A stretch of 64,000 bases of DNA. Source: an uncultured Methanomicrobiales archaeon. Lineage in GTDB: Archaea; Halobacteriota; Methanomicrobia; Methanomicrobiales; Methanospirillaceae. The stretch lies in the NCBI GenBank assembly GCA_963697895.1, contig OY969100.1:1408001-1472000 (forward strand). Direction: 5' to 3'. A program made the translations under genes and the position numbers. The notes below the pieces were generated by a model. That model ran no database searches. It saw only the letters and a list, made by a program, of their open reading frames with translations, and was not told where the DNA came from. Below, in pieces: positions 9,701 to 41,420 of the stretch (position 1 is the first letter of the stretch; each line of letters opens with the position of its first letter).

Positions 9701-9706
9701 CGCTGT

Positions 9707-10648: not shown

Positions 10649-10701
10649 TAAATCAACACTTCCTCTATTTTCCTGTCAGATAATGGGAAAATCATTGTAT
10701 A

Positions 10702-10713
10702 TTGAATATTCAA
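10702..10713. promoter_or_regulatory. Perfect 12-bp palindrome TTGAATATTCAA, candidate operator
   Basis: Self-complementary 12-mer in the 132-bp gap of the CBS cluster, 54-65 bp upstream of the 9707..10648 start. Confidence 0.35.
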
Positions 10714-10780
10714 CATGATGTTCAGCCCCGGGGAATCCACGTGTGCTTTTGGACCCGGGAGAGGGGTCTTCTGTCATACC

Positions 10781-12093: not shown

Positions 12094-12322
12094 CAGATCA
12101 CCCCCATATGCGCGCTTTCTGCTATGGGTGAATACAGTTTACACTTACTGTAAGCCATCAATATAAAAGAATTGGTCTATATATAACCTCCCCGATGGCC
12201 GGGGGCACGCATATTTTTTCATAAAAAACCTAATAAACGTGTATTTCATAGTGTTATATGTAATCGCTCCGGCACTCCCGGGAACCCATGGGGAGAATCG
12301 TCGGGGCGGTCCGGGGTGCAGG

Positions 12323-12964: not shown

Positions 12965-12970
12965 AGAACG

Positions 12971-13330
12971 ATGATCGAGGGTGTGCAGATAGACCTCATC
13001 TCGGAGGAACGGCTTTCGAAGCTGACATCGATGGAAAAGATACGCCTGATACTCGACGATGTGCGTCAGGGGACGATCGTCATCCTCGAGAAAGGCCTTG
13101 CCCCCGATGAGCAGAGCAGCCTGATTGAAATGACGATGCGGGAGATATTCCCAGATGGCTTTAATGGCATCGAGATCGAGACGTATCCCGCACGGGAAGA
13201 AGGATCATTTCTCGCACGTCTCCTCGGACGGGTTCCGGAGTCCCGGATGACGGTGATCGGCCCGGCAAACCAGTTGAAGATGATCAGAAAGGACCGGGAT
13301 CTGATCAGTGCATGGGTTTCTTCACGGTGA
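12971..13330 (+). CDS. oapB: DUF2073-family protein (OapB/ArvB)
   Basis: MEKIRLILDDVR.G.IVILEKGL.PDE, GIEIETYP, TVIGPANQL. Confidence 0.85.
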   Translation: MIEGVQIDLISEERLSKLTSMEKIRLILDDVRQGTIVILEKGLAPDEQSSLIEMTMREIFPDGFNGIEIETYPAREEGSFLARLLGRVPESRMTVIGPANQLKMIRKDRDLISAWVSSR

Positions 13331-13333
13331 GAT

Positions 13334-13717
13334 ATGCCGCATCAGTGTGTGAAATGTGGAAAAGAATATAAAGTGGCCTCCCTGGTGGTTTTAAAAGGGT
13401 GTGAGATCTGTGGAGGAAAAAAATTCCTCTTTGTTACCGACCGGCCACAACGGGAGATGGATGAATCCATAGAGAAGCGGGAGATCAGTCCCCAAAAGAT
13501 GATCCCTCCTGAAGAGGAGGAGGATTCAGGTCAGGTTGTTGAAGATGGCGAACGGGTGGAGAGCGTCCGGATTGTTTCACCCGGGACCTATGAACTGAAT
13601 ATTGCAAAGATGGCCGAGAGTGATGACCGGGTCGTACGAATCGGTAAGGCGGGAAGCTATATGGTCGATCTCCACTCCATGGTGAAAGCCCGGAGAAAGA
13701 AACAATCCCAGAAATGA
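13334..13717 (+). CDS. oapC: Zn-ribbon protein, DUF2072 family (OapC/ArvC)
   Basis: MPHQCVKCG...LKGCEICGGKKF; ESVRIVSPGTYELN. Confidence 0.85.
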   Translation: MPHQCVKCGKEYKVASLVVLKGCEICGGKKFLFVTDRPQREMDESIEKREISPQKMIPPEEEEDSGQVVEDGERVESVRIVSPGTYELNIAKMAESDDRVVRIGKAGSYMVDLHSMVKARRKKQSQK

Positions 13718-25035: not shown

Positions 25036-26073
25036 TCATACAAAGAACCTGAATGCAATCCAGGCGATGATCAGCATGATCGCTGAGTATTTTAATCCCG
25101 CAACCACCCTCCCCTCACCCATCTGCCCTGCGACCAGACCGGAAAATACAGCTTGGATCATCGCCGCATGAGCAAACAGCCGCGTATAGAACGCGACATC
25201 AATCCCCCCCAGGAATTGACTGCCGGCACCGGCCGAGGTTGCTGCGCTGCCTGCTGTTGCCATCGTCGTAAGGAACGTTGTAACCAGGATAAAGATGACG
25301 AAGAGGAATACGAGGAACGAGATGAGCACAATGACGATGTAGATCAGCATATTGTTCCGCCTGTCGGTTCTGAGCTGGACGAATTCGTACGTGTCGTTTG
25401 CCGCGGCCCGGAGGACTTCGCTGACATCTCCACCGGCCTTGCTTGCTTTTGCGATCAGATCGATGCTCCGGTCTGTCAGGGGGGTGGCAAGCCGCTTCCG
25501 GAATCTCTGCATCGCCTCGATAAACGGCACATTCCATGACATTTCACTGTCCAGCCGGCGGATATACGGGGTCAGTGTGCTGTACTCCGCCGATGCGACG
25601 AGATGAATCGCATTTGGCAGGGTCATTCCGCTGTCATTCATTCCTGCCAGATCCCGGAAGAAGTTGGGGAGGGCTTCCTCCAGTTTCCGCACGCGCTGGG
25701 ATTCCCTGAAATCAAGGACCGCGAGTGGAATGAATACAATGAGCAGGCTCAAAACCGCAAGATCATCGATGATAGTCGAGTTGAAAATGACCTCGAATCC
25801 ATTGTTGTTGATCGCAATTGCAGAACCAGCCCCGAATATTACCAGGGCAAGCGGTACACATACGATCAGGATATTGATCGGTTTTTCCGTGATCACCCTC
25901 AGGGGATGTCTGATAAAGCGGTATATTCCTTCCCGGTGTTTATGATCCGCCTCCAGTTTTTTGCTAATTTCGATCTGGTCCTTATCGAACAGACCCATCT
26001 CCGGGGGAGAAAGGTCAGGGGCAGCGATCGGATCCCGACCCCAAGGGGAATGAAACAAATCCTTTATTGTCAT
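25036..26073 (-). CDS. Type II secretion system F / TadC-PilC-like membrane platform protein
   Basis: ALPNFFRDLA..NDSGM, KAGGDVSEVL, GQMGEG; multiple TM helices. Confidence 0.9.
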   Translation of the reverse strand: MTIKDLFHSPWGRDPIAAPDLSPPEMGLFDKDQIEISKKLEADHKHREGIYRFIRHPLRVITEKPINILIVCVPLALVIFGAGSAIAINNNGFEVIFNSTIIDDLAVLSLLIVFIPLAVLDFRESQRVRKLEEALPNFFRDLAGMNDSGMTLPNAIHLVASAEYSTLTPYIRRLDSEMSWNVPFIEAMQRFRKRLATPLTDRSIDLIAKASKAGGDVSEVLRAAANDTYEFVQLRTDRRNNMLIYIVIVLISFLVFLFVIFILVTTFLTTMATAGSAATSAGAGSQFLGGIDVAFYTRLFAHAAMIQAVFSGLVAGQMGEGRVVAGLKYSAIMLIIAWIAFRFFV

Positions 26074-26074
26074 T

Positions 26075-26998
26075 TTATCCCTCCGGCGTCATGGAACTGA
26101 TCAGGATCACGAACATGATGCTCCCGAAGGGAATCAACAGGTATATAATTGCGTAGAGGAACAAAGGCTGCGTCTGGTGACTGAGGATGGACATGATCGA
26201 CTGGAGGATGATAAGGAAGAGAGGGCCGGCTACCATGGCGGTGACGTATGATTCAGAGATCAAGCCGAGCGTCTCGAGGAATAACCTTTGGGTCTGGCGA
26301 TTTTCGAGTGCATATTGATCCGCCTTGGTGCGGAAATAATCCGTAAGGTTGCTTCCGCTTGATACGCACCCCATTGCCCCCTGAAGAAATTCCTTCATGC
26401 GGAGGCTCGGCGTTGTCGAGGAGATGATCCGGAGGGAATCTATCAGATCCCTGCCGAACAGGTCGATTTCCAGCGCTATATACCGGGCTTCCACCGAGCA
26501 TTCCCCATACATCGGGCTCTCCCCCAGCTGGCGGAAGATCTCAGCCGGCGGTATCCCGGCGGAGGACATCGCGGTGACGTAGTTGATGGCATAGGGTAAC
26601 GTAGCATCGATATTCCTCTTCCGGTTCCCCGCGACAAATGCAGGATAAAGGTTGAAAATGACAAAGGTGATCCCCCCGACGACGACAAAGGATACGATCA
26701 CAGCGAGGATTGTCCCGATTATGAGGCTGTAATCTGCCAGCCCATGGACAAATTCGGGGACTGAACCCCGGTACACGATAAGAGACGGAAGATTGAGCAT
26801 ATAGGTGATCAGCCCGAGGAGGACAGATGCGATCAGGCCGGTAATGAATGAGGCCATGTATGCGGTGGCTATATACACTTCGGAAGATACCTTGAACCGG
26901 GCTGCCATCAGTGAATTGCGGAGCTCACTGTATTTATTCCGTTTTTTCAGGGTCCATCGTCCGAGGAGCTGCCAGGAGATACGTTCAAAGCTGTTCAT
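26075..26998 (-). CDS. Type II secretion system F / TadC-PilC-like membrane platform protein
   Basis: IDATLPYAINY..AMSSAG, STTPS..KEFL, ESYVT; TM helices. Confidence 0.9.
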   Translation of the reverse strand: MNSFERISWQLLGRWTLKKRNKYSELRNSLMAARFKVSSEVYIATAYMASFITGLIASVLLGLITYMLNLPSLIVYRGSVPEFVHGLADYSLIIGTILAVIVSFVVVGGITFVIFNLYPAFVAGNRKRNIDATLPYAINYVTAMSSAGIPPAEIFRQLGESPMYGECSVEARYIALEIDLFGRDLIDSLRIISSTTPSLRMKEFLQGAMGCVSSGSNLTDYFRTKADQYALENRQTQRLFLETLGLISESYVTAMVAGPLFLIILQSIMSILSHQTQPLFLYAIIYLLIPFGSIMFVILISSMTPEG

Positions 26999-29252
26999 AC
27001 AATTCAGCCCGCACTTTTTCCATAACAACCGCGGGATCACGGTAATAGGATATCAACATCTGGCTGACATCCCGGTAATACCGGATCTTCTTGATTCGCA
27101 TCCACTCCAGCACTTCCTGACGCATCTTCAGTTCCTCCCGCATCCTGGTCTCATCCCAGCCTCGTTCTTCCATAATCTCTTCAAGGATGAATGACTTCCC
27201 GGAGTACGTAATTTCGTCCGTGACCGGGTGCCATCGGAAGACTTCATTGGTGATCAGCTCGTTCGTTCGCGGATCGATATCCAGGATCTCGATGATCTGC
27301 TTATTTCTCCGGATCCTTTGTCCCCCGATTCGTGCCTGTACCTGAACCGACACCAGATCGAGGGCGGAGAGCATATTTCGCGGAACATTCAACGGCGGGT
27401 TTTCCAGCCGGTGCACAATGCTCGCAACCGAATCTGCATGCATGGTCGAATAGGTGATATGCCCCGTGCTCATCGCCTGGAAGAGCGTCAACGCTTCGCG
27501 TCCACGCACTTCCCCGACGATCAGGTATTCCGGCCGCTGACGGAGAGCCGCTTTCAGCAGCTCATACATATCGATCTCCCCTTTTCCTGCGGTATCAAAT
27601 GATGCCCGGGTCACGCTGGGAATCCAGTTCGGGTGTGGCAGTTTCAGCTCACGGGTATCCTCGAGGGTGACGATCTTGGCGAGAGGAGGAATAAAGAGAG
27701 ATATTGCATTCAGTGAAGTGGTCTTACCCGAAGCCGTCCCTCCCGCGAAGATGCATGATTTTCCACTCTCGACCGCAAGCCAGAGAAAAGCAACAGACAG
27801 GGGAGAGAATGTTCCCCATTCGATCAGATCGGTTGGTGAGATCGGTTCATCACGAAACTTACGGATAGTATAGGTGGAACCATGTGCGGTCACTTCCTGC
27901 CCGAGCGTCATCTGGATACGGGATCCATCACTCATGGTGGCATCGAGCATCGGCTCAGAGATAGAGATATATTTTCCCGACCTCTGCGCAAGCTTGGTTA
28001 CAAATGAGTCCAGTTCTTCAGCCCGGATATACATAAGGTTCGTTCGCATCGATTCATATCGTGCATGATAGACAAAAATATGGGAATTCACCCCGTCGCA
28101 GGATATGTCCTCGATATATTTGTCATGCATGATCGGGTCAATCATGCCATTCCCGAGGAATTCCTTCCTCATATTGTAGAGAATCTTTTCCCGCTGCATC
28201 GGAGTGAGATGAATGCTGTAGTCGGCGACGATATCATCGGTGACCGTGTTTAAGGTTTTTTGTGCGACTTCTCTGACGATGTCCCGGGTATCGACATCGA
28301 GACGTTCAAAAATACGTTCTTTCAACTCGTTGAACAGATCGGTTTCCGCGGGTGAGAGAAGCGGTTCGAGCACCTCGTAGGTGTATTCATGCGTGCTGTG
28401 ATCGTAGATGATACGGATGTAGGCATACGGTTCGTTCACCGGATAGAGTTCGATCTCTTCAATACCAGGTCTTTTCGGAAATTTCAGGTCAACGAGCGGG
28501 CCATGGATATTCTTATCGTATTCGGTGGCTTGGGGTCTGATCGCCTGGAAGATGTTGAATTTTCCGAACCTTCCGGTGGGTTTCGCTTCTCCTGAAACCG
28601 GTTCCGCGGTCCCGATCTCCTTGACCGATCCCATAGTGAGATCTCCCGACCAGAGAGCATTGACCTCAGGCGAGGGGCTGGGGCCAAAGGCATCTGTCCG
28701 GGCATGAATTTTGACTTCATCAAGCTCGATGCTTGCGCCGGCAGGAAGGATCAACCCCGAGAGGTCATCAAGTTCTCCTGTTGTTCCTTTCAGACCGGAT
28801 GTTCCCTGCGAACCTTCCGACCACTGGGTTTTTCGTGCCGTGTACTGGATCTGAGTCGCCGGTGCGCCCGTATTCCGGGGATTGAGTTCACGCGGGAGAT
28901 CTTTTGGGTGTGGGCCTGGGGGTGGGCTTGGGGGTGGACTTTCAGAAACCGGCCTCTGCCCGGGAACAGACTGCGGGGTTTGTTCTTCTGCCGGTTTCCG
29001 GGATGAATCAGTGGATAACTTCTGATCCGGATTATCCTGAGATCCCGCCTGTTCAGATGCACCCACGCCGGGGGAAGTCCCCTGAATGCGTTTCATCAGG
29101 TCTCCCAGATCATGTATTGCAGGCAGATCTGTTCCCTCCGTGAGCTTCTTGTTTTCTGCCGCGTTTGTTAGCTGTATTTCCTGGCTCGGTCTCTTCAGCT
29201 TCTGCCTGAGCCGGGAAAAAGAACTGGATTCTTTTTTCTTATCATTACTCAT
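26985..29252 (-). CDS. Type IV pilus assembly ATPase (PilB/FlaI/TadA family) with long low-complexity N-terminus
   Basis: IEDISCDG, TIRKF, Walker A GGTASGKTT, LEDTREL, LRQRPEYLIVGEVRG, STMHA. Confidence 0.94.
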   Translation of the reverse strand: MSNDKKKESSSFSRLRQKLKRPSQEIQLTNAAENKKLTEGTDLPAIHDLGDLMKRIQGTSPGVGASEQAGSQDNPDQKLSTDSSRKPAEEQTPQSVPGQRPVSESPPPSPPPGPHPKDLPRELNPRNTGAPATQIQYTARKTQWSEGSQGTSGLKGTTGELDDLSGLILPAGASIELDEVKIHARTDAFGPSPSPEVNALWSGDLTMGSVKEIGTAEPVSGEAKPTGRFGKFNIFQAIRPQATEYDKNIHGPLVDLKFPKRPGIEEIELYPVNEPYAYIRIIYDHSTHEYTYEVLEPLLSPAETDLFNELKERIFERLDVDTRDIVREVAQKTLNTVTDDIVADYSIHLTPMQREKILYNMRKEFLGNGMIDPIMHDKYIEDISCDGVNSHIFVYHARYESMRTNLMYIRAEELDSFVTKLAQRSGKYISISEPMLDATMSDGSRIQMTLGQEVTAHGSTYTIRKFRDEPISPTDLIEWGTFSPLSVAFLWLAVESGKSCIFAGGTASGKTTSLNAISLFIPPLAKIVTLEDTRELKLPHPNWIPSVTRASFDTAGKGEIDMYELLKAALRQRPEYLIVGEVRGREALTLFQAMSTGHITYSTMHADSVASIVHRLENPPLNVPRNMLSALDLVSVQVQARIGGQRIRRNKQIIEILDIDPRTNELITNEVFRWHPVTDEITYSGKSFILEEIMEERGWDETRMREELKMRQEVLEWMRIKKIRYYRDVSQMLISYYRDPAVVMEKVRAELYEQL

Positions 29253-29296
29253 CTCCCTCACCCTCCTTCTGTAAATACCTCTGCGCGTTCAGGATC

Positions 29297-29998
29297 TCAG
29301 ACATTCATCATTCCCTCTTTTGAGAGTCCCTGTAACGCGAGTCTTATAAGCCCAAGATTTGCATCCGGGAGCGCATACAGGCACAGGTAGAGATCTCCGT
29401 AGGGGGCAATGATGAACTTCCCCGTATCTGTCTCGAGGAGCAGCTGTTCAAGCTGCCCGATATCCATATTCTCAATCATCTTCATGCTGGCTCTGAGCAG
29501 ATCCTCCGCCATTGCCGCAACTTTTTCGAAATCGGCATTTCCAAAAGACTGAACTGAAAATCCTTCAAAAAACGCAGAGACGGCAATCACTCCCGGCTGT
29601 TTGAGTATGTTTTTGAGCTTCCCCTCATTGAGTATGCTGGATATGGTGGTAATATTCACCCGGTCCTCTTCGGATAAGAGCATTCCACCCTCGAAAGCAA
29701 TATTCAGCGCTTCCCGAAATTCTTCGGGATCATATCGGAAAAGTCTCAATTCCGGACCAGTCTCAAGGACACCCGAAGTGATCCGGTTCATGTAATCGAT
29801 GGCTGTCCTGCCACGGAGAATTCCGTCTCTCCTTTCGAAATATGCAGCGATCATTCGTCCGTTATTCGAGACGATCCCGCCGGTGCCTTCTGGTTCGTCC
29901 ATTTGAATCATACCCGTAAATGTCAGGATAAACCTGATAGATTCATCATGAAGCGGGTCTTTCAGTATTCCAATATCAGTCCCCTGCGGCCATATCAT
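29297..29998 (-). CDS. DUF2226-like N-terminal domain fused to Roadblock/LC7 domain
   Basis: C-terminal PGVIAVSAFFEGF..VAAM..QLLLET..ANLGLIR; N-terminal P-x-G..FTG..GRMIAA..G..A pattern. Confidence 0.7.
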   Translation of the reverse strand: MIWPQGTDIGILKDPLHDESIRFILTFTGMIQMDEPEGTGGIVSNNGRMIAAYFERRDGILRGRTAIDYMNRITSGVLETGPELRLFRYDPEEFREALNIAFEGGMLLSEEDRVNITTISSILNEGKLKNILKQPGVIAVSAFFEGFSVQSFGNADFEKVAAMAEDLLRASMKMIENMDIGQLEQLLLETDTGKFIIAPYGDLYLCLYALPDANLGLIRLALQGLSKEGMMNV

Positions 29999-30000
29999 GA

Positions 30001-30348
30001 TTATAATGCTGCAATAAGGCGTTCTTTGTTCTTTTTCAGGTCGTACCTGATTCTGCCGACATTAGCAACACTATCTGCAACAATCGCAATAATTTCATCA
30101 GGGGACAGCGGGGCCATAATAATAGGCCCTTTTTCCAACTCTACCAGAAGCTGGGAAATCTCACCTTTGCCGAGTTCTTTTCCCATCGCTTCGGAGGTCC
30201 CCATTCCGGTTGATGCCATCGCCCCGAGTGCATCGGTGTCCATTTTGCCAGAGACCGCACTTTCTATGACAAAGCCGTCTCTCCCGACAACTACCGCGGC
30301 TGACACCCCCTCAATCTTTAAAAATTCTTCCAGTACCTGTTTCAACAT
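30001..30348 (-). CDS. Roadblock/LC7 (MglB-like) protein
   Basis: EGVSAAVVVGRDGFVIES, LGAM, QLLVELEKG, ANVGRIR. Confidence 0.92.
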   Translation of the reverse strand: MLKQVLEEFLKIEGVSAAVVVGRDGFVIESAVSGKMDTDALGAMASTGMGTSEAMGKELGKGEISQLLVELEKGPIIMAPLSPDEIIAIVADSVANVGRIRYDLKKNKERLIAAL

Positions 30349-30537
30349 CCAATGCCACCTTCATATAAATCCTTTTCTCTGATATATGATCATAAAAATG
30401 TTTCCTTTCATCGGAAGATAGTTTTGAACCCACAATATAAACTCCGATTTGGAGGGTTTAATTGGCCATATATGACCTATAATCGCGGTAAACATAATAC
30501 CAATAGAAATATAGGATACCGGGACCTCAAACTATTT

Positions 30538-31629
30538 ATGCAGATCCCCCGGGGAACATTTGCGTCGATCAAAAAGGGGATTCACATTCACGCCCTTCTT
30601 ATCGAGCTGGAGCATTCCCATTTCACCGGTGCTTGCGTTATATCCCATGGGCGTTCAACCATTTCACTTATCCTGAAGAACGGGAACTGCATCATGGCAG
30701 ATTGGGGCGATCTGAACGGTGAAGATTCCTGGGGTGCAATTCAGGCACTAGGTAACATCGAGGTTGACGCAGCTCTCTCGCGGCTCAGCCCGGCACAGAT
30801 CGCGCTCACTCAGGAATTTAACAAATCCGCCATTATTGCCCGAATGCGGAGATCATCAAGGAATGAGGGAAAAGGGGACAGGAACCATAGCATTCAGACG
30901 AGGAAGATCTCCGGTTCAAACGATATAGATGAACAACTCGGGAGCCTGGATGGTTCCGAAGAACCGAAAAGGAGCAACAGTTCGCGGGTGGACTCACCCG
31001 CGAGAGGGGAGCGAATCGCCTTACGCTCTTCTCAACACCCCGTTATTCCACTGCCTATGCCCCCGTCAGAAAAATTAAGGGAACCCGTTGAACAGGAGGA
31101 GAAGAAGACAATCGGCGCGGGAATCAAAGAACCATCTGGAAGGCTAAAATCTGAATCCGCGCTCACTTCAGCAGAAATTTCCCTCCTCCAGCTTTCAGGG
31201 GTACCTAAACCTCCCCAGAAAATCACCCCGGAGAAAGAGGTGCCGGACCCATGTGCCAGCGAACTGGATGGACAGGGAGACAATGTCCCTCAATCTCCGT
31301 ATGAGGAGGTTGTGCCGGAACGGTCCGAGTCACATCCGAAAAAATCGGAAGATCCGGGAACCGATGCCCCGGCATGGGGAACACCCGTTCCGGCCGATCA
31401 GCATTCTCCTGAAACGGATGACATATCTATGCCCGTACAAATTGGGAGTGTAGGGGATTCAACGCCCGGTACGAACGCCTCCCCCGAGGAAAGATCCATG
31501 GAGGAACTCTCTGCCCTGGACTCGGTGGACCTTTCAGGCATGACTGAAAAGATCCGTGACAACTGCCGCATTATCGTCCGCGGGCTTCAGCTTGAACATC
31601 TCCTCGACAGGAAAAAATCCGATAAATAG
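30538..31629 (+). CDS. DUF2226-like domain protein with long disordered linker and helical C-terminus
   Basis: MQIPRG...FTG.C...GNCIMA...G...LSPAQIALTQEFN; P/E/S-rich middle. Confidence 0.7.
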   Translation: MQIPRGTFASIKKGIHIHALLIELEHSHFTGACVISHGRSTISLILKNGNCIMADWGDLNGEDSWGAIQALGNIEVDAALSRLSPAQIALTQEFNKSAIIARMRRSSRNEGKGDRNHSIQTRKISGSNDIDEQLGSLDGSEEPKRSNSSRVDSPARGERIALRSSQHPVIPLPMPPSEKLREPVEQEEKKTIGAGIKEPSGRLKSESALTSAEISLLQLSGVPKPPQKITPEKEVPDPCASELDGQGDNVPQSPYEEVVPERSESHPKKSEDPGTDAPAWGTPVPADQHSPETDDISMPVQIGSVGDSTPGTNASPEERSMEELSALDSVDLSGMTEKIRDNCRIIVRGLQLEHLLDRKKSDK

Positions 31630-31641
31630 GGGGGGAGCGGG

Positions 31642-32202
31642 ATGGCTATTATGGTGAATAATACAACAGTGCTCTATATTGGAATTATTCTCTTGATCAC
31701 TCTTCTGATCGTTTTTGTTATTATCTTTCTGTATCTCATAACTGTGCGTCGTGAAGTCGCCGAGGTTCTTTCGCGTCCTGCCGCCGAGATAACCTCCCGT
31801 TCTACCTCAGATGAATGTGTCTCTGGCGGAGGAGAAATCCCGGGCCAGGCATCGTCGATCGCTGAGTGCCACCATGAGATCGATATTTTTAAATCATACT
31901 CAGATATCGGAGAAAATATGAAGGCCCTGAAGAAAAAGTACGGGCTCGATTCCATTACCCTTGCTTCGGAGGACGGACTGGTCATCGCATCTTCAGACCC
32001 GGAGGGGTCCCGGCTCGCTGCCGAGTATAGCCAGATCATAAAAAAATTACAGGAACCGGCGGGTAGCCGGATTCATCTCCTCAAAATGCACTACCGGGGA
32101 TCACCGCTCATCATGGTCATCCAGACAGAAAAACCTCTTCCTCCTGTATGGTTTTCCTCGATCGAAGATGATGCGCGGAAAATTTTGAACATATGGCTGT
32201 AA
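31642..32202 (+). CDS. Single-pass membrane protein with C-terminal Roadblock-like segment
   Basis: N-terminal TM (IGIILLITLLIVFVIIFLYLI); YGLDSITLASEDGLVIASS..LAAEYS. Confidence 0.7.
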   Translation: MAIMVNNTTVLYIGIILLITLLIVFVIIFLYLITVRREVAEVLSRPAAEITSRSTSDECVSGGGEIPGQASSIAECHHEIDIFKSYSDIGENMKALKKKYGLDSITLASEDGLVIASSDPEGSRLAAEYSQIIKKLQEPAGSRIHLLKMHYRGSPLIMVIQTEKPLPPVWFSSIEDDARKILNIWL

Positions 32203-32261
32203 CCAAACAGCCCAAATACTATTATAAGAATCTCCCGCGAAACCCTTATACAGGGGTTTCA

Positions 32262-33047
32262 TTGGTCAGGGTAATCACATTCGCTTCCGGCAAAGGAGGG
32301 ACCGGGAAAACCACGGTCACCGTTAACCTGGGCACGAGTCTCGCCCAGCTGGGAAAAAGAACCTATATCATGGATGCTGACATCGGCATGGCCAACCTCG
32401 GTCTGATCATCGGACTGGAAAATGTGCCGGTCACTTTGCATGAAGTACTGGCAGGGAAAGCATCCATCAACGAAGCCATATATGATGGTCCGGGGGGCGT
32501 AAAAGTCATTCCGAGCGGTATTTCGCTGCAGGGATTCCAACAGGCGAATCCGGAAAAATTACATGATGTATTACAGGAGATTCTGGAACGGTGTGATTTT
32601 CTCCTGATAGACGCCCCCGCAGGGATCAGCAGGGATGGTGTCATCCCGCTTGCCGTGGCCGATGAAGTGATCCTGGTTGTAAACCCTGAGTTGTCATCGG
32701 TTGTTGATGCTTTAAAGACAAAGATTCTCACAGAGGTTGTTGGCGGGCATGTTATGGGATCGATCATTAACCGTGTCGGAGCAGAAAAGCCCCTGGTCGT
32801 CACGGAAAAGATGGAAAAAATACTTGGCGTTCAGGTAATCGGCATTATTCCGGAGGATCCCAATGTCCGGACCGCCGCATCGTATAAAACACCGGTTGTA
32901 ATCAAATATCCCTCCTCAAATGCAGCGATCGCACTGAAACGCATCGCCTCCACCGTTGCAGGAGTATCCTGTTCGGAAGCCCAAAAGATGAACACTGAAG
33001 GATTCATCGATCGGTTTGCAAAAGCACTGTTCAGGGGGAGAAAATGA
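32262..33047 (+). CDS. minD: MinD-family ATPase
   Basis: Deviant Walker A SGKGGTGKTT, DADIGMANL, IDAPAG, IPED; C-terminal GFIDRFAKALF amphipathic helix; TTG start inferred. Confidence 0.92.
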   Translation: MVRVITFASGKGGTGKTTVTVNLGTSLAQLGKRTYIMDADIGMANLGLIIGLENVPVTLHEVLAGKASINEAIYDGPGGVKVIPSGISLQGFQQANPEKLHDVLQEILERCDFLLIDAPAGISRDGVIPLAVADEVILVVNPELSSVVDALKTKILTEVVGGHVMGSIINRVGAEKPLVVTEKMEKILGVQVIGIIPEDPNVRTAASYKTPVVIKYPSSNAAIALKRIASTVAGVSCSEAQKMNTEGFIDRFAKALFRGRK

Positions 33048-33241
33048 CTTCTGAACAATTATTGCTTGTTATTTTCGGGATAATTATCGTAATGCTCATT
33101 TTTCTCGTCTTTATCATGTGGATTCGGATACAACAGCTTCTTGAAGATGTCGAACGGATGGAGCAGAATATTTGTTCAACAACTGCCGACCTTGATCTCC
33201 TATCACATGATGTCGAAGAGATAAAAAAGCTGAAGATCTAG
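33044..33241 (+). CDS. Small single-pass membrane protein with coiled-coil tail
   Basis: ATGA overlap with minD stop; TM then heptad tail. Confidence 0.7.
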   Translation: MTSEQLLLVIFGIIIVMLIFLVFIMWIRIQQLLEDVERMEQNICSTTADLDLLSHDVEEIKKLKI

Positions 33242-33330
33242 AATCATAACCAGCTCACAATATGTGAAGAGATCCAGAATTTGAAAACTGTTTAAAGAAG
33301 AGCAGAGAAAAATGAACGATAAAAAAAAGA

Positions 33331-34461
33331 TTATATCTCTTCTTTCCGGTTTGTGATCTCGAAAACACAATGCGGGTCCCCTTTTGCCCGGCACTTGATC
33401 TCCCTTCCCCTTACCTTGATCCCGAACGCCCCTTCGGTAATGCCTGCGAGCAACCCTGCGGTGCAGAAACAGACATTCTTGCCTGTATTGCCGAATGCTT
33501 CTGACTCTACCGTGTGCTCGAGGGTGATTGTCTTGGTCTTTGCCGCTTCGTTCCAGTCCATCCTGATAATCCGGAACCATCCCATTTGGGAATAGAATGT
33601 AAACGCCATATCGGCAAGATGATTGGGATTGGTTATGCCCATCTTCTTATAGTGTTCGACATTTTCCTTACCCATATCCCAGTATGCCCGGTAGTTGACG
33701 CCCGCGGCGGGCATTTCACCCATCGTTTTTGCCAGGGAAGTCATCATAGAAGTAAAGACGAACCGGGGCATCATGACTACCGGATCATCGATCAGGTTGA
33801 TCTTCCCCACGAGAGGCTTGTGAACGATAAACTCGGTTATTGCAGAATCACCTTTTACAATCGCCTGTGCCTTCCACTTCCAGCTGGCTTCGGTCTGATC
33901 GGCGGCAAACTCGCAGCATTCATCACCGTTTGCATGACATTTTGTTTCGACACAGAACCAGTTTTTTCCGGTAACGGCGGCAAGAACACCCTCGATCCAT
34001 CCGCAATGAATGCCACAGACCGGCATCTTCCAGTCCTTCATCACCTGCGATTCGAAGGTCTGATCGGTGCGGAGCACAATTCTTTTGTCACTCTGCTCCA
34101 CCAGTGTAAATGGCGCCCCCCACCCCTGCTGGTGCTGGAGTTTGAATACCAGCAGCAGGAACTCCGGCGGTGAAAGATTTATCCCCAGTTTCAGCAGGAA
34201 ATTGTAGAGCCCGATAGATCCTAACCCGACCGATCGGAAGAGCTGTGCTGTGGCCTTTACGGCAAGTTTCTTATTGAGATTGGCCTCGTACATCTCAAAG
34301 ATGGCCTTGATCAGATAGTCCGGGTTGCTCGCGGTTCGAACGCCAAAAACGGAAGTTATTCCCTGGAGAGGGTCAATCTCGGTGAAATCGGTGATGTTTT
34401 TCTCGTTCCTGATGATTGCTTCAATGTCGGCCTTATCGATCCTTTTTCCTGACATTTCCAT
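33331..34461 (-). CDS. Tandem V4R (4-vinyl reductase-like) domain protein
   Basis: Two repeats: GWG..CGIHCGWIEG..ETKCHANGDECCEF and GW..CFCTAGLLAG..EIKCRAKGDPHCVFEI. Confidence 0.85.
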   Translation of the reverse strand: MEMSGKRIDKADIEAIIRNEKNITDFTEIDPLQGITSVFGVRTASNPDYLIKAIFEMYEANLNKKLAVKATAQLFRSVGLGSIGLYNFLLKLGINLSPPEFLLLVFKLQHQQGWGAPFTLVEQSDKRIVLRTDQTFESQVMKDWKMPVCGIHCGWIEGVLAAVTGKNWFCVETKCHANGDECCEFAADQTEASWKWKAQAIVKGDSAITEFIVHKPLVGKINLIDDPVVMMPRFVFTSMMTSLAKTMGEMPAAGVNYRAYWDMGKENVEHYKKMGITNPNHLADMAFTFYSQMGWFRIIRMDWNEAAKTKTITLEHTVESEAFGNTGKNVCFCTAGLLAGITEGAFGIKVRGREIKCRAKGDPHCVFEITNRKEEI

Positions 34462-34624
34462 CCTCGATATGAGAATGAGTGTCTGCGTTCATATAAGCGT
34501 AATCCTCTATTCTCGATGTTAATGGAAGAATTTTATCCATTGGCAACCCCGAATATATGAGCAACTTTTCGTTTGAGATTCCGTGCAAAGAGCTCCAGGG
34601 AGTGTTAAATCACTATGTGGACCT

Positions 34625-35265
34625 TCAGATCGCCGGCAATACCGTATCGCTATCGGATATTTCAAGGACAATCCGCGGCGACTGTGGGGTAAATGCAAAT
34701 GTGTACAATCGAATTCGCTGGTCCTTCGATGACACCGTAAATCATACATACCGTGAATCAGCCTGAACGATACCTTTCCGGTTTTATCGGTCACGTCATT
34801 GCCTACCACATGACCCTCGCGACGTATCGATAGATGGACCCCAGGCTGGAGGATGCCCTCCTTCGATACCGTGAGGGTCAATATACCGATTCCACAATTC
34901 TTCTTTCCGATCTGAAAGATCCCTTCCGCCTGAATTGGGTTAAGATGGCTCTTATCAAATATCCTGGTTCGCAGGACGATTCCCTCGATAATTGCACGTT
35001 CGATGACATGGAACTCATACTCTAATCCGGGGTCGAGCTGGAGGGTCGCTTTGTCCCCGACGAGTATACCATGTGAATCGGCAATAAGGGCTCCCTCTGG
35101 ATCGCCGCCGAGAAACAGGAGGAAAGATTCTCTCTTCGGTGTAACTCCGACGCCAATACCATTCAGATTCTGCGATTTTGCAATCTGAACCATATCATGC
35201 AGTACACAGCTCCCGGATGCGTTTGTTTTCCTGACAAGATCCCGTAATACCTCATCTAATTCCAT
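34625..35265 (-). CDS. Hypothetical protein (DUF2226-like N-terminus, beta-rich C-terminus), probable single-base deletion at ~34740
   Basis: FLLFLGGDPEGA..G.LVGDKA; TDKTGKVSFRL..G.YD; alternative frame TVSSKDQRIRLYTFAFTPQ...* looks more protein-like than the ORF-track tail ending at 34519. Confidence 0.6.
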
Positions 35266-35519
35266 TCTCGTTATTCACCACCCGGGTGCATCGAAGGATA
35301 CTGTGGGAGGAATTCTGGAAACCTATCTGCTCCCCCCATTCACAATGTCGATCGTTACAGGAATTTTCGTTACCCGGTATTTAATAATGCACCCATCCCG
35401 CTCACGAGGTTACTTCTCTGCAGATTACAATTTGTGCCATCTTCAACAATCACGAGTGCGCTCCCGCGAGGCAGGAGACATTGAATAATAGGGATAAACG
35501 CACACAGATACTCACACGT

Positions 35520-36305
35520 ATGATTGTTCCCCTGGTAATCGGCACTGTAGCGGTGCTGTTGACGCTTCTTTATGCTTCATACCGGGATATTTGCGAACGG
35601 CGCGTCCCGTTCAGGACATGGTATCCGATGCTGATGGTCGGATTACCTGCTGTTGCCTGGTTTTACGCCTCACTTATCGGAACTGAAGAGGTGCGCCTTT
35701 TCGTCCTTTTTATCGTATTGACTGCAGTTTTTTCCCTAATATTTTACCTCTTTGCTCTTATGCATCTTTTTGGCGGGGCCGATGCATGGGCACTTATCTT
35801 TATCGCACTCTGTATTCCCGCATTTCCCATCGAACCGTATCTGGGGTATTCTCCCACGGGATACTTTCCCCTCACCGTCCTTACCAACGCCGTTCTCCTC
35901 AACCTTATCACCCCGGTCGGTCTCTTTTTAATGAACCTGGTTCTTCGAAACCATGCCCCTTTCCCTTATATGTTCCTTGGTTATCCTGTTCCCGGGGACC
36001 GGATACAGGAAAGTTTCGGGTATGTCATGGAGGATCTGAGCGTTGAAGATGGCAGAATCAACAGGCGATTCATCAGGGTCCGTGATTCGATACGGGGTAT
36101 TCTCTCCGGGAGTGACCGGTTGTATACAAAAGAACTCCGTCTGCATCCTGAAAAGTATACCACTGAGTTATCGCTGTACCGGCAAGCGGGAAAGATATGG
36201 ATATCATATGGCGTGCCATTCATTGTACCAATAACAGCCGGACTGATCACCGCACTCCTGCTGGGGGATGTGCTGGTATGGTTCCTGCTCCTGGTACGAG
36301 GTTAA
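35520..36305 (+). CDS. A24 prepilin/prearchaellin peptidase (PibD/FlaK-like)
   Basis: ASYRDI.ERRV, FGGADAW, C-terminal [16 protein letters not shown]. Confidence 0.92.
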
Positions 36306-36705: not shown

Positions 36706-38589
36706 TTGAAATTGGTACCGGATACAAGCGTCGTTATCGACGGCCGCATCACCTCAATGATAAAAACCGGTGAATATAATGGTGCATCAATAATTATTCC
36801 CGAGGCGGTGATTGCCGAACTCGAAGCACAGGCCAACCAGGGAAGAGAGATCGGCTTTTCCGGCCTCACTGAGCTCCAGTCTCTCTGTAAACTCGCTGAT
36901 GAGGGTACGATTCAATTATCCTTTGTCGGCGTCAGACCTACCCTTGAACAGGTCAAACTTGCCAGCGGTGGCGAGATTGATGCACTGATCCGGAATGCAG
37001 CGATAGAAAATGATGCGCAATTTATTACGAGCGATATCGTACAGGCTGAGGTGGCCAAGGCAAAGGGGCTCGATGTCCTCTATCTCAAGCCCCAGATCGG
37101 TGACTATACTCCCCTGGGAATCGACCAGTTCTTCGATGAACATACAATCGCAGTCTACCTGAAGGAACGCGTACCGCCGGTTGCAAAAAAGGGAACTATC
37201 AAGGAGATGCGCCTTGTCAGAATACGCGAGCAGCCCGCGAACGAATACGAGTTGCGCGATCTTGCGCAGGAGATCCTGGAACGGGCAAAACGCGACCCGG
37301 ATGGATTCATCGAGGTTGAGAAAAGGGGCATTACGGTTGTTCAGATCGGCTCCATGCGAATTGCCATTGCCCGGCGGCCATTCAGTGACGGAATGGAGAT
37401 CACGGCTGTACGGCCAATTGTCGACATAAGCCTCGAGGACTATGCAAAGGCGAACGTCATTAAGAACCGTATCGTCGGTGATAAGAGAGGTCTGCTCATT
37501 GCAGGACCTCCCGGGGGGGGTAAAAGTACGCTCGCCCAGGGTGTAGGCACGTATCTGGCGGATCATGGTTTTATCGTCAAGACCATGGAATCCCCCCGTG
37601 AGCTTCAGGTTCCGGATCATATTACCCAGTATACCACACTGGAAGGGAGCATGCAGAATACTGCAGATATCCTCATGCTTGTCCGGCCAGACTTTGTAAT
37701 CTTTGACGAAATCCGAAAAAATGAAGATTTTCGTGTTTTTGGAGATATGAGGCTCGCCGGGATCGGTATGATCGGGGTACTTCATGCAGTCGGACCGCAG
37801 GATGCACTGCAGCGATTTTCTGATAGGATAGATTTCGGTGTACTTCCCCAGATCATTCAGACCATTATCTTCGTGGACAAAGGGGAGATCAGAAATATCT
37901 ATGAGATCGGCTTCACCATCAAAGTCCCTGAAGGCATGTCCAACCAGATGCATCTCTGTCCGGTCACGACCATTCAGGATTATGAGACCGGAGAGCTTGT
38001 CTTCGAGATCTTCAAATATGACTCGGAGACGATTGTGATGCCGGTCATGCACCCTGGAGTGATTGGAGCTCCCTTGAAGACTCCGGCCGTTCCGAAAGAG
38101 GAGGAAGAGAGTTCGTCCTGGAAGATCACCGAGAAGGAGATCCAGCGGGAGATCGGTCGGTATACCGAGGGGTACGTTGACGTCCACATGCTGAATGATA
38201 ATAAAGCGGTCGTTTATATCGAAGATAAAGACGTTCCGGCAGCGATCGGAAAAGGTGGGAAGAATATAGCCGCGATCGTGAACAAAGTAGGAATCGGGAT
38301 CGATATCAGGCCACGAAGCGAACTTGAAAAACAACCCGCAGCACCGCAATCCGAGGAAGAATTAGCGTTGGGTGGCGGGATAAAGATCCGGATGGATAAG
38401 AAACAACTCTCCATCATCTGTCCTGAACTTTCCGGCAAAATCGTGGACGTTTTTGCCGGAAAAGAATACCTGTTCACGGCAACGGTGAACGAGAGCGGGG
38501 AGATACACCTCGCAAAAAACAGCACTATTGCACAGGAGATGATCCGGCGGTACAATGCAGGAGACCCGATTCGGTTACGACCTGTATAA
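36706..38589 (+). CDS. PIN-domain ATPase with KH domain (PINA/VapC-ATPase family)
   Basis: VPDTSVVIDG PIN; AGPPGGGKST; FDEIR; IGKGGKNI KH motif. Confidence 0.92.
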   Translation: MKLVPDTSVVIDGRITSMIKTGEYNGASIIIPEAVIAELEAQANQGREIGFSGLTELQSLCKLADEGTIQLSFVGVRPTLEQVKLASGGEIDALIRNAAIENDAQFITSDIVQAEVAKAKGLDVLYLKPQIGDYTPLGIDQFFDEHTIAVYLKERVPPVAKKGTIKEMRLVRIREQPANEYELRDLAQEILERAKRDPDGFIEVEKRGITVVQIGSMRIAIARRPFSDGMEITAVRPIVDISLEDYAKANVIKNRIVGDKRGLLIAGPPGGGKSTLAQGVGTYLADHGFIVKTMESPRELQVPDHITQYTTLEGSMQNTADILMLVRPDFVIFDEIRKNEDFRVFGDMRLAGIGMIGVLHAVGPQDALQRFSDRIDFGVLPQIIQTIIFVDKGEIRNIYEIGFTIKVPEGMSNQMHLCPVTTIQDYETGELVFEIFKYDSETIVMPVMHPGVIGAPLKTPAVPKEEEESSSWKITEKEIQREIGRYTEGYVDVHMLNDNKAVVYIEDKDVPAAIGKGGKNIAAIVNKVGIGIDIRPRSELEKQPAAPQSEEELALGGGIKIRMDKKQLSIICPELSGKIVDVFAGKEYLFTATVNESGEIHLAKNSTIAQEMIRRYNAGDPIRLRPV

Positions 38590-38638: not shown

Positions 38639-41420
38639 GTGAGCGGAATCAATATGCGGGAACTTGAAAATGAGGCTGCAACCCGGTGGGAGCATGTTTT
38701 CGAGTCAGACCCATCGAATCGTGAGAAATGGTACCTGACGGTCGCATATCCGTATCCAAGCGGGGCAATGCATGTCGGCCACGGGCGCACCTATATTGTC
38801 CCCGATGTAATCGCACGTTTCTGGAGAATGAAGGGTTATCAAGTGCTGTACCCGATGGCTTTCCATGTAACCGGTGCACCAGTCATTGGTATTTCGAAAC
38901 GAATCGCCCGGGGTGACGAAAAAGCGATCCATCTCTATCGGGATCTGTACAAAGTTCCTCCAGATGTTTTGGAACAATTTGTGGACCCACTCGCGATTGT
39001 CCGTCATTTCAGCGATGAATATGAGCGGGTAATGAAGAGCTGCGGTCTCTCCATCGACTGGAGGCGCAGGTTTACCACGGTCGATCCGCAATACAGCAAG
39101 TTCATTGAATGGCAATGGAAACATCTGTATTCCGGGGGTCACGTATTAAAAGGAGCCCACCCTGTCCGATACTGTCCACAGTGCGAAAATCCGGTAGGTG
39201 ATCATGACCTGCTGGAAGGGGACAAAGCGGAGATTCTGAAATTCACCCTGGTCATGTTCCGGTTTGGGGACGCACTCATTCCAACCGCAACCTTACGGCC
39301 GGAGACCATTTACGGGGTGACAAACCTCTGGATTAATCCCGGGGTTTTATATGTCCGTGCCCGGGTTGACGGAAATGAATGGATCCTATCCCGCCAGGCA
39401 GCTGAAAAGCTCAGCTTTACAGGACCATCGAATTGAAATTATCGGGGAAATGGATGGAAAAGCCCTGATAGATTGTACCGTGTACCACCCTCTTTGTGGG
39501 GAAGTACCGATCCTGCCGGCTACCTTCGTTGACCCGGATATGGCAAGTGGTATTGTCATGAGCGTCCCCGCCCATGCTCCTTTTGATTATATCGCTCTCC
39601 GGGATCTTCAGGAGAAAGGGTTTAACCGGGAGATAAAGCCGATTCCCCTTATCCGGGTCGAGGGTTATGGCACGATTCCTGCACAGGACGCAGTGGAACG
39701 GGCAGGTATACGGGACCAGAATGACCCACGAATGGAGAAGCTCACCCAGGAGGTCTACGCCACCGAATTTTCGAGGGGAAAGCTATTGGATCAGTATGGA
39801 GGTGAGCCAGTACGAACGGCACGGAATACCGTCGGGGAGCTTTTAACCAGAAAGTATTGTTCGATCGAGATGTTAGAATTCGATACCCGATCTGTTGTCT
39901 GCCGATGCGGGGGAAAGGTATTTGTCAAGATACTCCACGACCAGTGGTTCCTCCAGTATAGCGATCCGAACTGGAAACAGGAGGTTGCCGGGCAGTTGAA
40001 GACGATGACGCTGGTCCCCCCTGAGGTCCGGGCCGAATTTGAACGCACAATCGACTGGCTGAATGATTGGGCATGCACCCGCCGAGTCGGTCTCGGTACG
40101 CGCCTCCCATGGGATCCCGACTGGTTGATAGAGCCATTGAGCGATTCCACAATATACATGGCGTATTATACCATTGCTCACCGAATAAGAAATTTCGCTC
40201 CTGAACTGCTGACCCCGGCGGTATTTGATTATATATTCCTCGGCATGGGCTCCCCGGATCTGCCCGATAAGGAAGATCTCGCCGATATCCGATCAGAATT
40301 CCTTTACTGGTATCCGTATAATTTTCGGTTCTCCGCCAAAGATCTGATATCCAATCATCTCACGTTCCAGCTCTTCCATCATGTAGCCATTTTCCCGAAG
40401 CAGTGTCTTCCGAAGGGGATGGTAGTTTTTGGTATGGGCCTCCTCAACGGTGCCAAAATGTCATCGAGTAAAGGGAACGTCTTTCTCCTGGAAGATGCCG
40501 TTGCCGAATTCGGTGCAGACACGGTACGGATGTTCCTCGTCGGGAGCGCCGAACCCTGGCAGGATTTTGACTGGCGGAATGAACTTGTTTCTTCAACGAA
40601 AAAACAGATCGAACGGTTCTGGAATACAGTTAAGGAGGATATGCAGGCCGTTGGTGAGAAAAGAGACATCGACCGGTGGTTGATCTCCCGTCTTCAGTCC
40701 CATGTGGAGATGGCGACCGATGCGATGGAACATTTCCAGACCCGTCAGGCACTTCAGGAGTCATTATTTGCGATCGAATCTGACCTGAAATGGTACCGCA
40801 GGCGGCTTCCTGCCGGTTCCACCGGGAGCGAACTCCTTCGCTCACTCTGTTCCGTCTGGGTGCGTCTGCTCGCCCCCATTATTCCTTTTACTTGTGAACG
40901 GCTCTGGCGCGAACTGGGAGAGGAGGGTCTGGTATCTTTTGCAGCCTGGCCCGTCGCCGACACCAATATGAAAGACCCGGGGATCGAACTTGCCGAGGAA
41001 CTTCTATTCCGTACGGTGGAAGATATCGAATCCATCGAGAAGATCATCCAGTTCACCCCTTCAGCGATAACCATCCTGATAGCACCTTTGTGGAAAAGGC
41101 AGATATTCAAAAAGATTGCAGAAACATCGGATAAAACTTCAATCATTAAGGAAATTATGAGAGATCCGGAGATGCGATCAAGAGGAAAGGAGGCGATACG
41201 GATCGCCCGCCAGTGTACGACCCTGATCCACCGCCTCCCCCCTCAGCTGGTTGATCTTCTGGTAAGTGACAGCCTGAATGAGAAAGACATGTTTAATCGG
41301 GCACGAGGGTTCCTCGAAAAAGAGTTCGGAGTCCCGGTAAGTATCGTTGACGCTGACATGAGTACGCAGGCAAAGGCAGATTCAGCCCTCCCATTCAAGC
41401 CGGCAATTGTTATTGAGTGA
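38639..41420 (+). CDS. leuS: Leucyl-tRNA synthetase, one apparent +1 frameshift at ~39412
   Basis: [12 protein letters not shown] and ATLRPET in first frame; [21 protein letters not shown] in second frame. Confidence 0.93.

Follow-up and report, generated by a model that had tools for sequence, protein, structure and literature searches.

The MglA/MglB polarity module of Myxococcus xanthus sets the pole at which type IVa pili (T4aP) are assembled. We know of no account of how archaea choose where or when to build pili and, to our knowledge, a partner protein has yet to be established for any archaeal MinD. The locus described here lies at positions 25036-36305 of a 64,000-nucleotide stretch of DNA (the window; contig OY969100.1 of assembly GCA_963697895.1, positions 1,408,001 to 1,472,000) from an uncultured Methanomicrobiales archaeon. 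Two gene sets that can be told apart are combined in it: a type IV pilus (T4P) core (set A) and, interleaved with it, a MinD cassette and a pair of Roadblock genes (set B). We suggest, tentatively and with a little less than even confidence, that in this organism set A is regulated by set B, which would set the place or time at which the pilus machine works.

The closest described pilus loci are of the archaeal PilB3 type. According to the main text of Makarova, Koonin and Albers (2016; PMC4858521), these loci have two tadC genes, a FleN/MinD ATPase (arCOG00589) is expected to be a regulator, and roadblock proteins (arCOG02603), to which one sentence is given, are frequently encoded at T4P loci of various kinds. 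The main text of a census of archaeal type IV filament (T4F) systems (PLoS Genet 2026; PMC13705601) repeats the MinD idea. The term 'DUF2226' has no occurrence in the main text of the former, and 'roadblock', 'V4R' and 'MglB' are absent from that of the latter; a search of the full-text literature for 'DUF2226' returned nothing. The locus in the window resembles the euryarchaeal 'clade 2 / system 2' PilB3-type loci (Haloferax volcanii PilB3-PilC3) in its VirB11/PilB3-like ATPase with PilB3 N- and C-terminal domains, its two tadC-like genes and its pilins encoded in trans. It differs from the published accounts in that, in the main texts of PMC4858521 and PMC13705601, the accessory genes receive one line each and no model.

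Set A consists of Z248-PilB-PilC(N)-PilC(C) with a divergent peptidase-HisI-PIN ATPase block, and set B of the Roadblock pair (Robl115-X233) and the MinD cassette (Y363-TMRobl186-MinD-TM65). Domains were called by Pfam and NCBIfam profile searches, and lengths are given in amino acid residues (aa). The features of the locus are as follows.

25036..26073, minus strand: PilC/TadC platform protein, homologue of the C-terminal half, 345 aa (T2SSF, E 1.3e-16)
26075..27040, minus strand: PilC/TadC platform protein, homologue of the N-terminal half, 321 aa in the longest open reading frame (ORF) (T2SSF, E 1.4e-12)
26985..29261, minus strand: PilB3-like T4P assembly ATPase, 758 aa (T2SSE, E 8e-34; PilB3_C, E 2.6e-7; PilB3_N, E 0.0035)
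29297..29998, minus strand: X233, DUF2226-like N-domain fused to a Roadblock domain, 233 aa (Robl_LC7 at residues 150-209, E 2e-9, 37.3 bits, cut-off 23)
30001..30348, minus strand: Robl115, stand-alone Roadblock/LC7 protein, 115 aa (Robl_LC7, E 7e-19, 67.8 bits, cut-off 23)
30349..30537, no strand: divergent intergenic region, 189 nt, AT-rich (several TATA-like stretches, read directly)
30538..31629, plus strand: Y363, DUF2226-like N-domain, variable linker and conserved C-terminal helix region (family alignment)
31642..32202, plus strand: TMRobl186, N-terminal transmembrane (TM) helix, linker and conserved C-terminal domain of ~105 aa (family alignment)
32262..33047, plus strand: archaeal MinD, 261 aa with TTG 32262 as its start, 32193 being that of the longest ORF (TIGR01969, 333 bits, cut-off 201.75)
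33044..33241, plus strand: TM65, micro-protein with a TM helix and a conserved C-terminal helix (start overlaps the MinD stop by 4 nt)
33331..34461, minus strand: tandem V4R protein, 376 aa (V4R, PF02830, twice; E 2e-24, 85.7 bits, cut-off 31)
34519..35265, minus strand: Z248, PATAN/DUF2226-like N-domain, transthyretin-like beta-sandwich and tail (AlphaFold2, synteny)
35481..36305, plus strand: class III signal (prepilin) peptidase of family A24 with the archaeal C-terminal domain (Arc_PepC_II, E 1.3e-22; Peptidase_A24, E 2e-8)

All 12 ORFs of a preliminary description of this DNA, made from the sequence alone, were verified at their positions within 25036-36305. The domains that it had assigned also match for the ATPase and two TadC/PilC-like genes at one end, the A24 peptidase at the other, the stand-alone Roadblock/LC7 protein, the archaeal MinD, the TM-containing micro-protein next to it and the two V4R stretches of the tandem V4R protein. 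Its two divergent units are real: judged by spacing, a leftward block (Robl115-X233-PilB-PilC(N)-PilC(C)) and a rightward block (Y363-TMRobl186-MinD-TM65) face away from the AT-rich gap at 30349-30537, a putative promoter region. Spacing indicates two further blocks resembling transcription units, the leftward Z248-V4R and the rightward peptidase-HisI. The Roadblock pair is packed immediately upstream of PilB-PilC; Robl115, X233, PilB and the PilC halves share a strand, with gaps of 2 and 35 nt followed by overlaps.

Housekeeping genes flank the locus, with HisRS and topoisomerase VI at one end and HisI, a PIN-domain ATPase (36706-38589) and a class I tRNA synthetase at the other; the remaining genes of the window are likewise housekeeping, and no pilin gene was found among them. 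The genome is a single contig of 2.09 Mb whose close homologues bear Methanoregulaceae names. Three of its four Robl_LC7 matches, its sole MinD above the cut-off and its sole T4P ATPase are all at the locus. Close relatives share the whole arrangement by descent, and this clustering is therefore not independent evidence of function.

Set A has the components of a PilB3-type T4P assembly system (ATPase, platform protein, class III peptidase, and pilins in trans), pilin processing and assembly being predicted. The product of 25036-26073 matches the C-terminal parts of the ArlJ and UpsF models and that of 26075-27040 the N-terminal parts of ArlJ models. The genome has a single ATPase of T4P type, the other T2SSE match being the PIN-domain ATPase; the T4P-type protein scores 418 bits on the FlaI model, under that model's cut-off of 550, and no archaellum-type ATPase was found in the genome. 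It is 52-85% identical to the ATPases across the phylum sample described below. An N-terminal extension of ~260 aa (28484-29261, minus strand), rich in Pro, Ser and Gly, precedes PilB3_N and has no profile match; orthologous frames range from ~630 to 1130 aa, and the N-terminal region is therefore highly variable. The A24 peptidase gene is divergent from Z248 and stays with the T4P core where the Roadblock and MinD genes lie elsewhere. Four Pilin_N (PF07790) genes and a DUF7287/7288/7266/7289 operon are found elsewhere in the genome.

Linkage of the two sets was followed in 80 loci fetched around X233 homologues from named genomes and scanned with the window proteins, and in a wider survey (tblastn and Pfam scans) of a 201-genome phylum sample and the fetched regions. 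The phyletic pattern of MinD and of a small GTPase was obtained from 60 further genomes of the order. Families are numbered with the prefix f, f1 being that of the window, and individual loci with L. Among Methanoregulaceae-type loci of sufficient length, the ATPase was found in 63/64, the N-terminal PilC gene in 63/64, the C-terminal one in 61/62, Robl115 in 69/69 (adjoining X233 in every case), Y363 in 64/65, MinD in 64/64, Z248 in 55/56, the V4R protein in 53/61, TMRobl186 in 54/67, TM65 in 11/64 (by tblastn) and the HisI flank in 52/54.

X233 lies less than 5 kb from the orthologous ATPase in 11 of the 22 genomes of the order that have it (seven in f1, two in f4 and two in f5, three of the five families), and the gene order around it changes. 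The units of f1 are divergent, as in the window. The order in f4, f5 and Methanofollis (L095, L096, L097, L061) is Robl115-X233-(Y)-MinD-Z248-PilB-PilC in one direction, and a Methanomicrobiaceae contig (L082) has a partial third form, Robl115-X233-Z248-PilB-PilC, with no MinD between. In f15 (L109), VWA, KaiC-like, PilC and PilB3-like genes directly follow hydrogenase large- and small-subunit genes and precede MinD, a Roadblock gene paired with one for a 660-aa DUF2226 protein, and a Roadblock-small GTPase-Roadblock trio, all within ~13 kb; PilC is there a single fused gene, as opposed to the split form of the window. This is the only outside lineage seen with PilB3-like and PilC genes, MinD, a DUF2226 protein and three Roadblock genes together. 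The linkage is thus recurrent in changed gene orders (f1, f4, f5, L082 and L109), not universal, and in this form it favours regulation of set A by set B. The synteny survey suggested by the preliminary description accordingly had a divided outcome in the phylum sample: accessory genes and T4P core are linked in f1, f4, f5 and L109, and not in f2, f6, f14 or f3.

Most genomes of f2, f4, f5 and f6 carry two MinD genes. The two copies in f4 and f5 differ in setting, one lying within the pilus operon, with X233 (or Y) on one side and Z-PilB on the other, and the second belonging to a Y363-TMRobl186-MinD-TM65 cassette that stands alone, at a distance from pilus genes (L116, L117). A maximum-likelihood tree was built from 27 MinD sequences, rows chosen from the fetched loci; its backbone is unresolved and two outgroup rows are very long-branched. 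The pilus-operon copies of f4, f5, Methanofollis and L079 (L095, L096, L097, L061, L079) form a clade of their own with support 95/90. The window MinD groups with the other f1 copies (80-94), and its placement near the f4 copy of the stand-alone cassette is weak (66/80). Its genome has no second MinD, and the protein is therefore probably not dedicated to pili in this organism.

Z248, a cytoplasmic protein, is a constant companion of the ATPase in the window's order: it is present in 25 of the 27 genomes of the order (the window's own excluded) and lies beside the orthologous ATPase in 25/25. The distance to the ATPase core is at most 1.9 kb in 18 genomes and 5.1-7.0 kb in seven f1 genomes, because set B is inserted between them there. 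Z248 has no Pfam match. Its N-domain is modelled by AlphaFold2 at a predicted local distance difference test score (pLDDT) of 94-98 with the element order of the X233 N-domain plus one extra N-terminal helix. Its C-domain is a transthyretin/CnaB-like beta-sandwich (6fwv_B: Z 10.8, root-mean-square deviation (rmsd) 2.0, 81 residues aligned), and 5 of the 25 members of the family match CarboxypepD_reg. One of the 25 matches DUF4388 (PF14332, E 0.002), the Z248 of the window being unmatched. The C-terminal tail (34519-34660, minus strand), ~45 aa long, is not conserved, is modelled as disordered (pLDDT ~26) and is absent from orthologues of ~203 aa. A frameshift was rejected as the origin of the tail: up to about residue 202 a single frame aligns with the orthologues, and what follows is an extension.

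The Roadblock pair is more firmly classified. Robl115 and the C-domain of X233 belong to the Roadblock/LC7 family (PF03259). X233 has 329 homologues, and among the 120 listed most are near full length. Its AlphaFold2 model, made from 18 sequences, has a pLDDT of 80; the C-domain matches the Roadblock structure 9jue_D (Z 16.9, rmsd 2.0, 113 residues aligned) and the MglB structures 3t1r_A (Z 14.1, rmsd 2.3, 113 residues) and 6hjm_A (Z 14.0, rmsd 2.9, 119 residues). The locus is in this respect like Myxococcus xanthus MglA/MglB (with MglC and RomR/RomX), Roadblock-fold proteins being encoded with pilus genes. The N-terminal half of X233 has no Pfam match and is modelled as beta-alpha-beta-beta-beta-beta-alpha-beta-alpha.

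Y363 starts at 30538, not 30352, and has no Pfam match. Its N-domain of ~100 conserved residues begins MQLPRGT and is followed by a variable, proline-rich linker and then by ~40 conserved C-terminal residues. The preliminary description had called Y363, Z248 and the part of X233 fused to Roadblock DUF2226-like, and the label fares differently for the three. None of them matches DUF2226 (PF09987) directly, even at E<=10, nor does any other protein of the genome, and pairwise BLASTP among the three gave nothing significant. For X233 and Y363 the label is justified through relatives, as judged from profile comparisons: a PF09987 match (26.1 bits, cut-off 22; G052:C4:39028-39315) falls inside an f14 orthologue of X233, and the Y363 family profile aligns with a PF09987-positive (29.7 bits) 369-aa f14 protein of L087 at an hhalign probability of 93% (E 2.8e-7). 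The fusion of X233 is accordingly sound in its Roadblock half and indirect in its DUF2226 half; Y363 does have the linker ascribed to it, and its DUF2226 assignment is indirect likewise. The Y363 and X233 N-domains align with each other at E 3e-4 and 40% probability. For Z248 the label is tentative, given its weak profile likeness and similar element order. The nearest named look-alikes of the Z248 and X233 N-domains in a protein atlas are DUF2226 and PatA_N clusters, at 0.80-0.86, values below 0.9 that serve as a lead only. Two of 25 members of the Y363 family match DUF4388 (best E 9e-4), the Y363 of the window being unmatched. Fold-search lists for X233 were filled by the Roadblock domain and bear on that domain, not on the DUF2226-like one. 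MglB homologues occur near PATAN proteins, and no orphan MglB has been characterised, in the part of Wuichet and Sogaard-Andersen (2014; PMC4316618) covered here.

The fourth Roadblock gene of the genome lies outside the window (G000:C1:1827160-1837673; L098:8160-18673) in a triad of a HAMP membrane protein, a Roadblock protein and a 389-aa paralogue of X233, followed by a REC-MetOD2 response regulator; the triad is conserved in 9/9 fetched relatives. About 0.9 kb away are the pilin-like operon, of five genes (DUF7287/7288/7266/7289), and a gene for a 1084-aa VWA/Big_1 protein. The triad resembles the actinobacterial conservon (CvnA sensor kinase, CvnB Roadblock, CvnC and CvnD GTPase, as described in the part of PMC4316618 covered) in having a HAMP protein, a Roadblock protein and a second Roadblock-containing protein, with a GTPase encoded in the genome. 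Unlike the conservon it has no kinase domain or adjacent GTPase, and the likeness is one of layout only.

The most likely start of MinD is TTG 32262, because orthologues begin MVRV. The Walker A motif GKGGTGKT is invariant in 21/21 aligned orthologues, and conservation extends to f14 for the C-terminal motif EGFIDRFAKxLF, which reads EGFIDRLA in some orthologues; the C-terminal segment is predicted to form an amphipathic helix and may bind the membrane. In these features the protein is like Haloferax MinD4/MinD2 and bacterial FlhG, ATPases that place motility machines. Work on haloarchaeal MinD proteins, unlike the case here, concerns archaella and chemosensory arrays, and the window's genome lacks an archaellum-type ATPase. 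The TM65 gene directly follows MinD, and homologues do so in f1, f14, f4, f5 and f2 loci, as does HVO_0596 after minD2 in H. volcanii, a conserved small gene whose mutant has no phenotype (the part of PMC11588486 covered). TM65 has weak DUF5798 matches (E 0.017 and 0.0029), below the cut-off.

TMRobl186 had been described as a membrane-anchored Roadblock-like protein. The TM helix is present and the Roadblock call is weak: the protein matches Robl_LC7 at E 0.0027 and 17.9 bits, under the cut-off of 23, 1 of 23 family members matches (E<=0.01), its profile reaches a dynein roadblock chain in the PDB at E 0.18, and hhalign against alignment A1 returned nothing. The tandem V4R protein matches the V4R part of MsvR and was not found with this query in five genomes of f2, f6 and f14. 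A predicted complex of two MinD with ATP and Y363 gave a median of 0.31 against a mark of 0.32, which speaks neither for binding nor against it. In family f8, one of six fetched loci of canonical DUF2226 genes has MinD within 10 kb and none has a T4P ATPase, and a pairing of DUF2226 with MinD is therefore not universal.

The two sets are apart in other families. In the other 11 of the 22 genomes (f2 7/7, f6 4/4), X233 and the ATPase are on different contigs or over 900 kb apart. The order in f2 and f6 (L084, L085, L086) is Y363-TMRobl-MinD-...-ferredoxin-hydrogenase small/large subunit-Robl115-X233, with PilB far off. In f14, outside the order (L087-L090), where 15/15 have an X233 homologue, it is hydrogenase-Robl115-X233-(DUF2226 protein)-(unknown)-MinD-TM65, and the four loci read have no ATPase within 10 kb; in L088 an NYN gene comes after MinD-TM65. 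The Roadblock pair follows an Mvh-like [NiFe] hydrogenase large-subunit gene by at most 25 nt in f6 and f14 and is near one in f2 (hydrogenase-linked loci are L085:6135-10309, L088:6263-10673 and L109:5405-10208, in the last of which these hydrogenase genes are followed by the f15 PilB-PilC genes). An Mvh-type large subunit is lacking in the window's genome, where only a Frh-like one, 26% identical, is encoded. This packing is as tight as that of the Roadblock pair with PilB in the window, so the neighbourhood ties the pair also to genes without evident pilus relation. The link could go back to a single old supercluster, retained by descent, or reflect a functional tie to the hydrogenase genes.

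Such arrangements accord with a different reading, a serious possibility although on the whole a doubtful one, that set B, an archaeal MinD module, serves cell organisation in general (division, shape or the placing of several cargoes), has no special tie to pili and stands beside T4P genes through an old shared neighbourhood that included the Mvh hydrogenase. The position of set B behind hydrogenase genes, apart from set A, in f2, f6 and f14 is what this reading expects; PilB-PilC of L109 themselves come after the gene for the hydrogenase large subunit, in keeping with a single ancestral supercluster. The window MinD, as the sole copy in its genome, and the stand-alone cassette of f4 and f5 away from T4P genes, to which the window MinD is nearest if weakly, point the same way. 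However, the adjacency of the two sets persists through two different rearrangements, f4 and f5 keep a separate clade of MinD paralogues inside the pilus operon, and the element order of the Z248 N-domain is that of the X233 and Y363 N-domains.

Regulation of set A by set B is favoured, besides the recurrent linkage, by the paralogous triad near the pilin-like operon as a second site in this genome, and by the FleN/MinD and roadblock proteins that PMC4858521 notes at archaeal T4P loci. Several observations weigh against it, among them the genomes in which X233 and the ATPase are far apart, the f14 loci and the tight packing behind hydrogenase genes just described. The 80 Methanoregulaceae-type loci are not independent, because their flanks are conserved too (HisI as above; topoisomerase VI in many). 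Family f3 has PilB in 4/4 and Z248 in 3/4, with MinD in 0/10, X233 in 0/4 and an orthologue of the small GTPase in 0/10 of the genomes searched; a pilus core can therefore exist without set B, which pilus assembly would not need. The window MinD is a sole copy outside the pilus-operon clade. The profile likeness of Z248 to X233 and Y363 has an hhalign probability of 10-15%, and its N-domain fold has no solved-structure match, the fold-search lists being filled by the beta-sandwich. The pilin neighbourhood of the triad was undetected in 9/9 relatives, a result made weak by fast pilin divergence. Of the dedicated module proposed in the preliminary description for setting where and when pili assemble, the link to the T4P core recurs (in f1, f4, f5 and L109), and the dedication is spoken against by the sets being unlinked in f2, f6 and f14, by MinD and X233 missing in f3 and by the window MinD being single.

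Pfam and NCBIfam scans found no GTPase gene at the locus, and the Roadblock genes there have no cognate GTPase beside and co-evolving with them, by which an MglA-MglB pair is recognised. The genome does encode a 169-aa small GTPase ~500 kb from the window (G000:C1:1939990-1940496; L099:4990-5496), 33% identical (E 9e-28) to the L109 GTPase that is flanked by two Roadblock genes. The locus is thus unlike Myxococcus MglA/MglB in that the candidate GTPase lies ~500 kb from the Roadblock genes and a MinD ATPase is nearby instead, in an archaeal host with a different pilus machine. Close orthologues of the GTPase (E <= 1e-44) were found in f1 (9/10), f4 (10/10), f5 (10/10), f2 (9/10), f6 (2/10) and f3 (0/10), and no homologue in any other fetched locus.

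The Roadblock pair may accordingly work classically with this small Ras-like GTPase encoded in trans, MinD acting in parallel and not as a replacement of MglA. We consider this unlikely, though it deserves attention and is compatible with regulation of set A by set B. The relative of the GTPase in L109 lies beside a DUF2226-Roadblock pair and MinD, and the phyletic pattern agrees with that of X233 in f1, f4, f5 and f2, where orthologues occur, and in f3, which lacks the GTPase as well as X233 and MinD. The patterns part in f6, which keeps X233 in 4/4 and MinD in 10/10 (PilB and Z248 are each in 4/4) while none of its four X233-bearing genomes has the GTPase. No Roadblock gene lies beside the GTPase in the window's genome.

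The preliminary description had gone further, to a dedicated pilus-positioning module in which MinD replaces MglA as the switch read by the Roadblock proteins. In this strict form the proposal appears improbable. The locus has no GTPase gene, MinD and Roadblock genes accompany PilB in f1, f4, f5 and L109, and f4 and f5 have the pilus-operon MinD clade, all of which speak for it; but the candidate GTPase in trans means that MinD in place of MglA is not forced by these data. Moreover, the GTPase of L109 lies between Roadblock genes next to MinD, so both switches coexist there, the window MinD is a sole copy outside the pilus-operon clade, and the module is unlinked from T4P in three families.

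Returning to regulation of set A by set B, the function is pointed to by the operon-like packing in the window, the pilus-operon MinD paralogue in two sister families and the domain that Z248 and the set B proteins seemingly share. The contacts, adaptor roles and effect on pili that follow are what we infer from these. ATP-bound MinD would sit on the membrane, with Y363, TMRobl186 and TM65 as its partners, and Robl115 and X233 would form a Roadblock heterodimer. The DUF2226/PATAN-like N-domains of X233, Y363 and Z248 would be adaptors tying the state of MinD and Roadblock to PilB, and the state so coupled would set the site or timing of the pilus machine. The tandem V4R protein, which is family-specific, may add a small-molecule or redox input. 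A bolder version, which we think distinctly unlikely, is that one adaptor family couples MinD and the Roadblock heterodimer to PilB (Y363 on MinD, X233 on Roadblock and Z248 on PilB), as an ATPase-based polarity or timing switch that could run without an MglA-type GTPase, as in f6, and that became pilus-specific in f4 and f5 by duplication of MinD.

Several further features of the window lie outside the locus. A class I aminoacyl-tRNA synthetase is split between 38639-39436 (the N-terminal part of tRNA-synt_1) and 39351-41420 (the rest and the anticodon-binding domain), both on the plus strand with an 86-nt overlap in different frames, and a frameshift, an error of assembly or a broken gene may be the cause. 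At 12239-13714 (plus strand) a GTPase gene precedes OapB and OapC, which belong to origin-associated protein families, and a replication origin may be near. Five consecutive genes at 8088-12090 (minus strand) encode only CBS domains, and the product of 61650-63488 (plus strand) is a thiamine-pyrophosphate enzyme (TPP_enzyme N, M and C) that carries a rubredoxin domain at its N-terminus.

Neither main text (PMC4858521 or PMC13705601), as far as covered, describes Z248 as accompanying PilB constantly, the fusion of DUF2226 and Roadblock domains, or the operon MinD paralogue. The same Roadblock pair packed as tightly behind hydrogenase genes elsewhere advises caution over guilt by association. 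The locus and its rearranged sister forms nevertheless give candidate pairs, namely Z248 with PilB, Robl115 with X233, Y363, TMRobl186 or TM65 with MinD, and the three DUF2226-like domains with one another. They also offer a natural comparison between families that have a MinD paralogue in the pilus operon (f4 and f5), families in which the two sets are unlinked (f2 and f6) and one that has the pilus genes without the module (f3).

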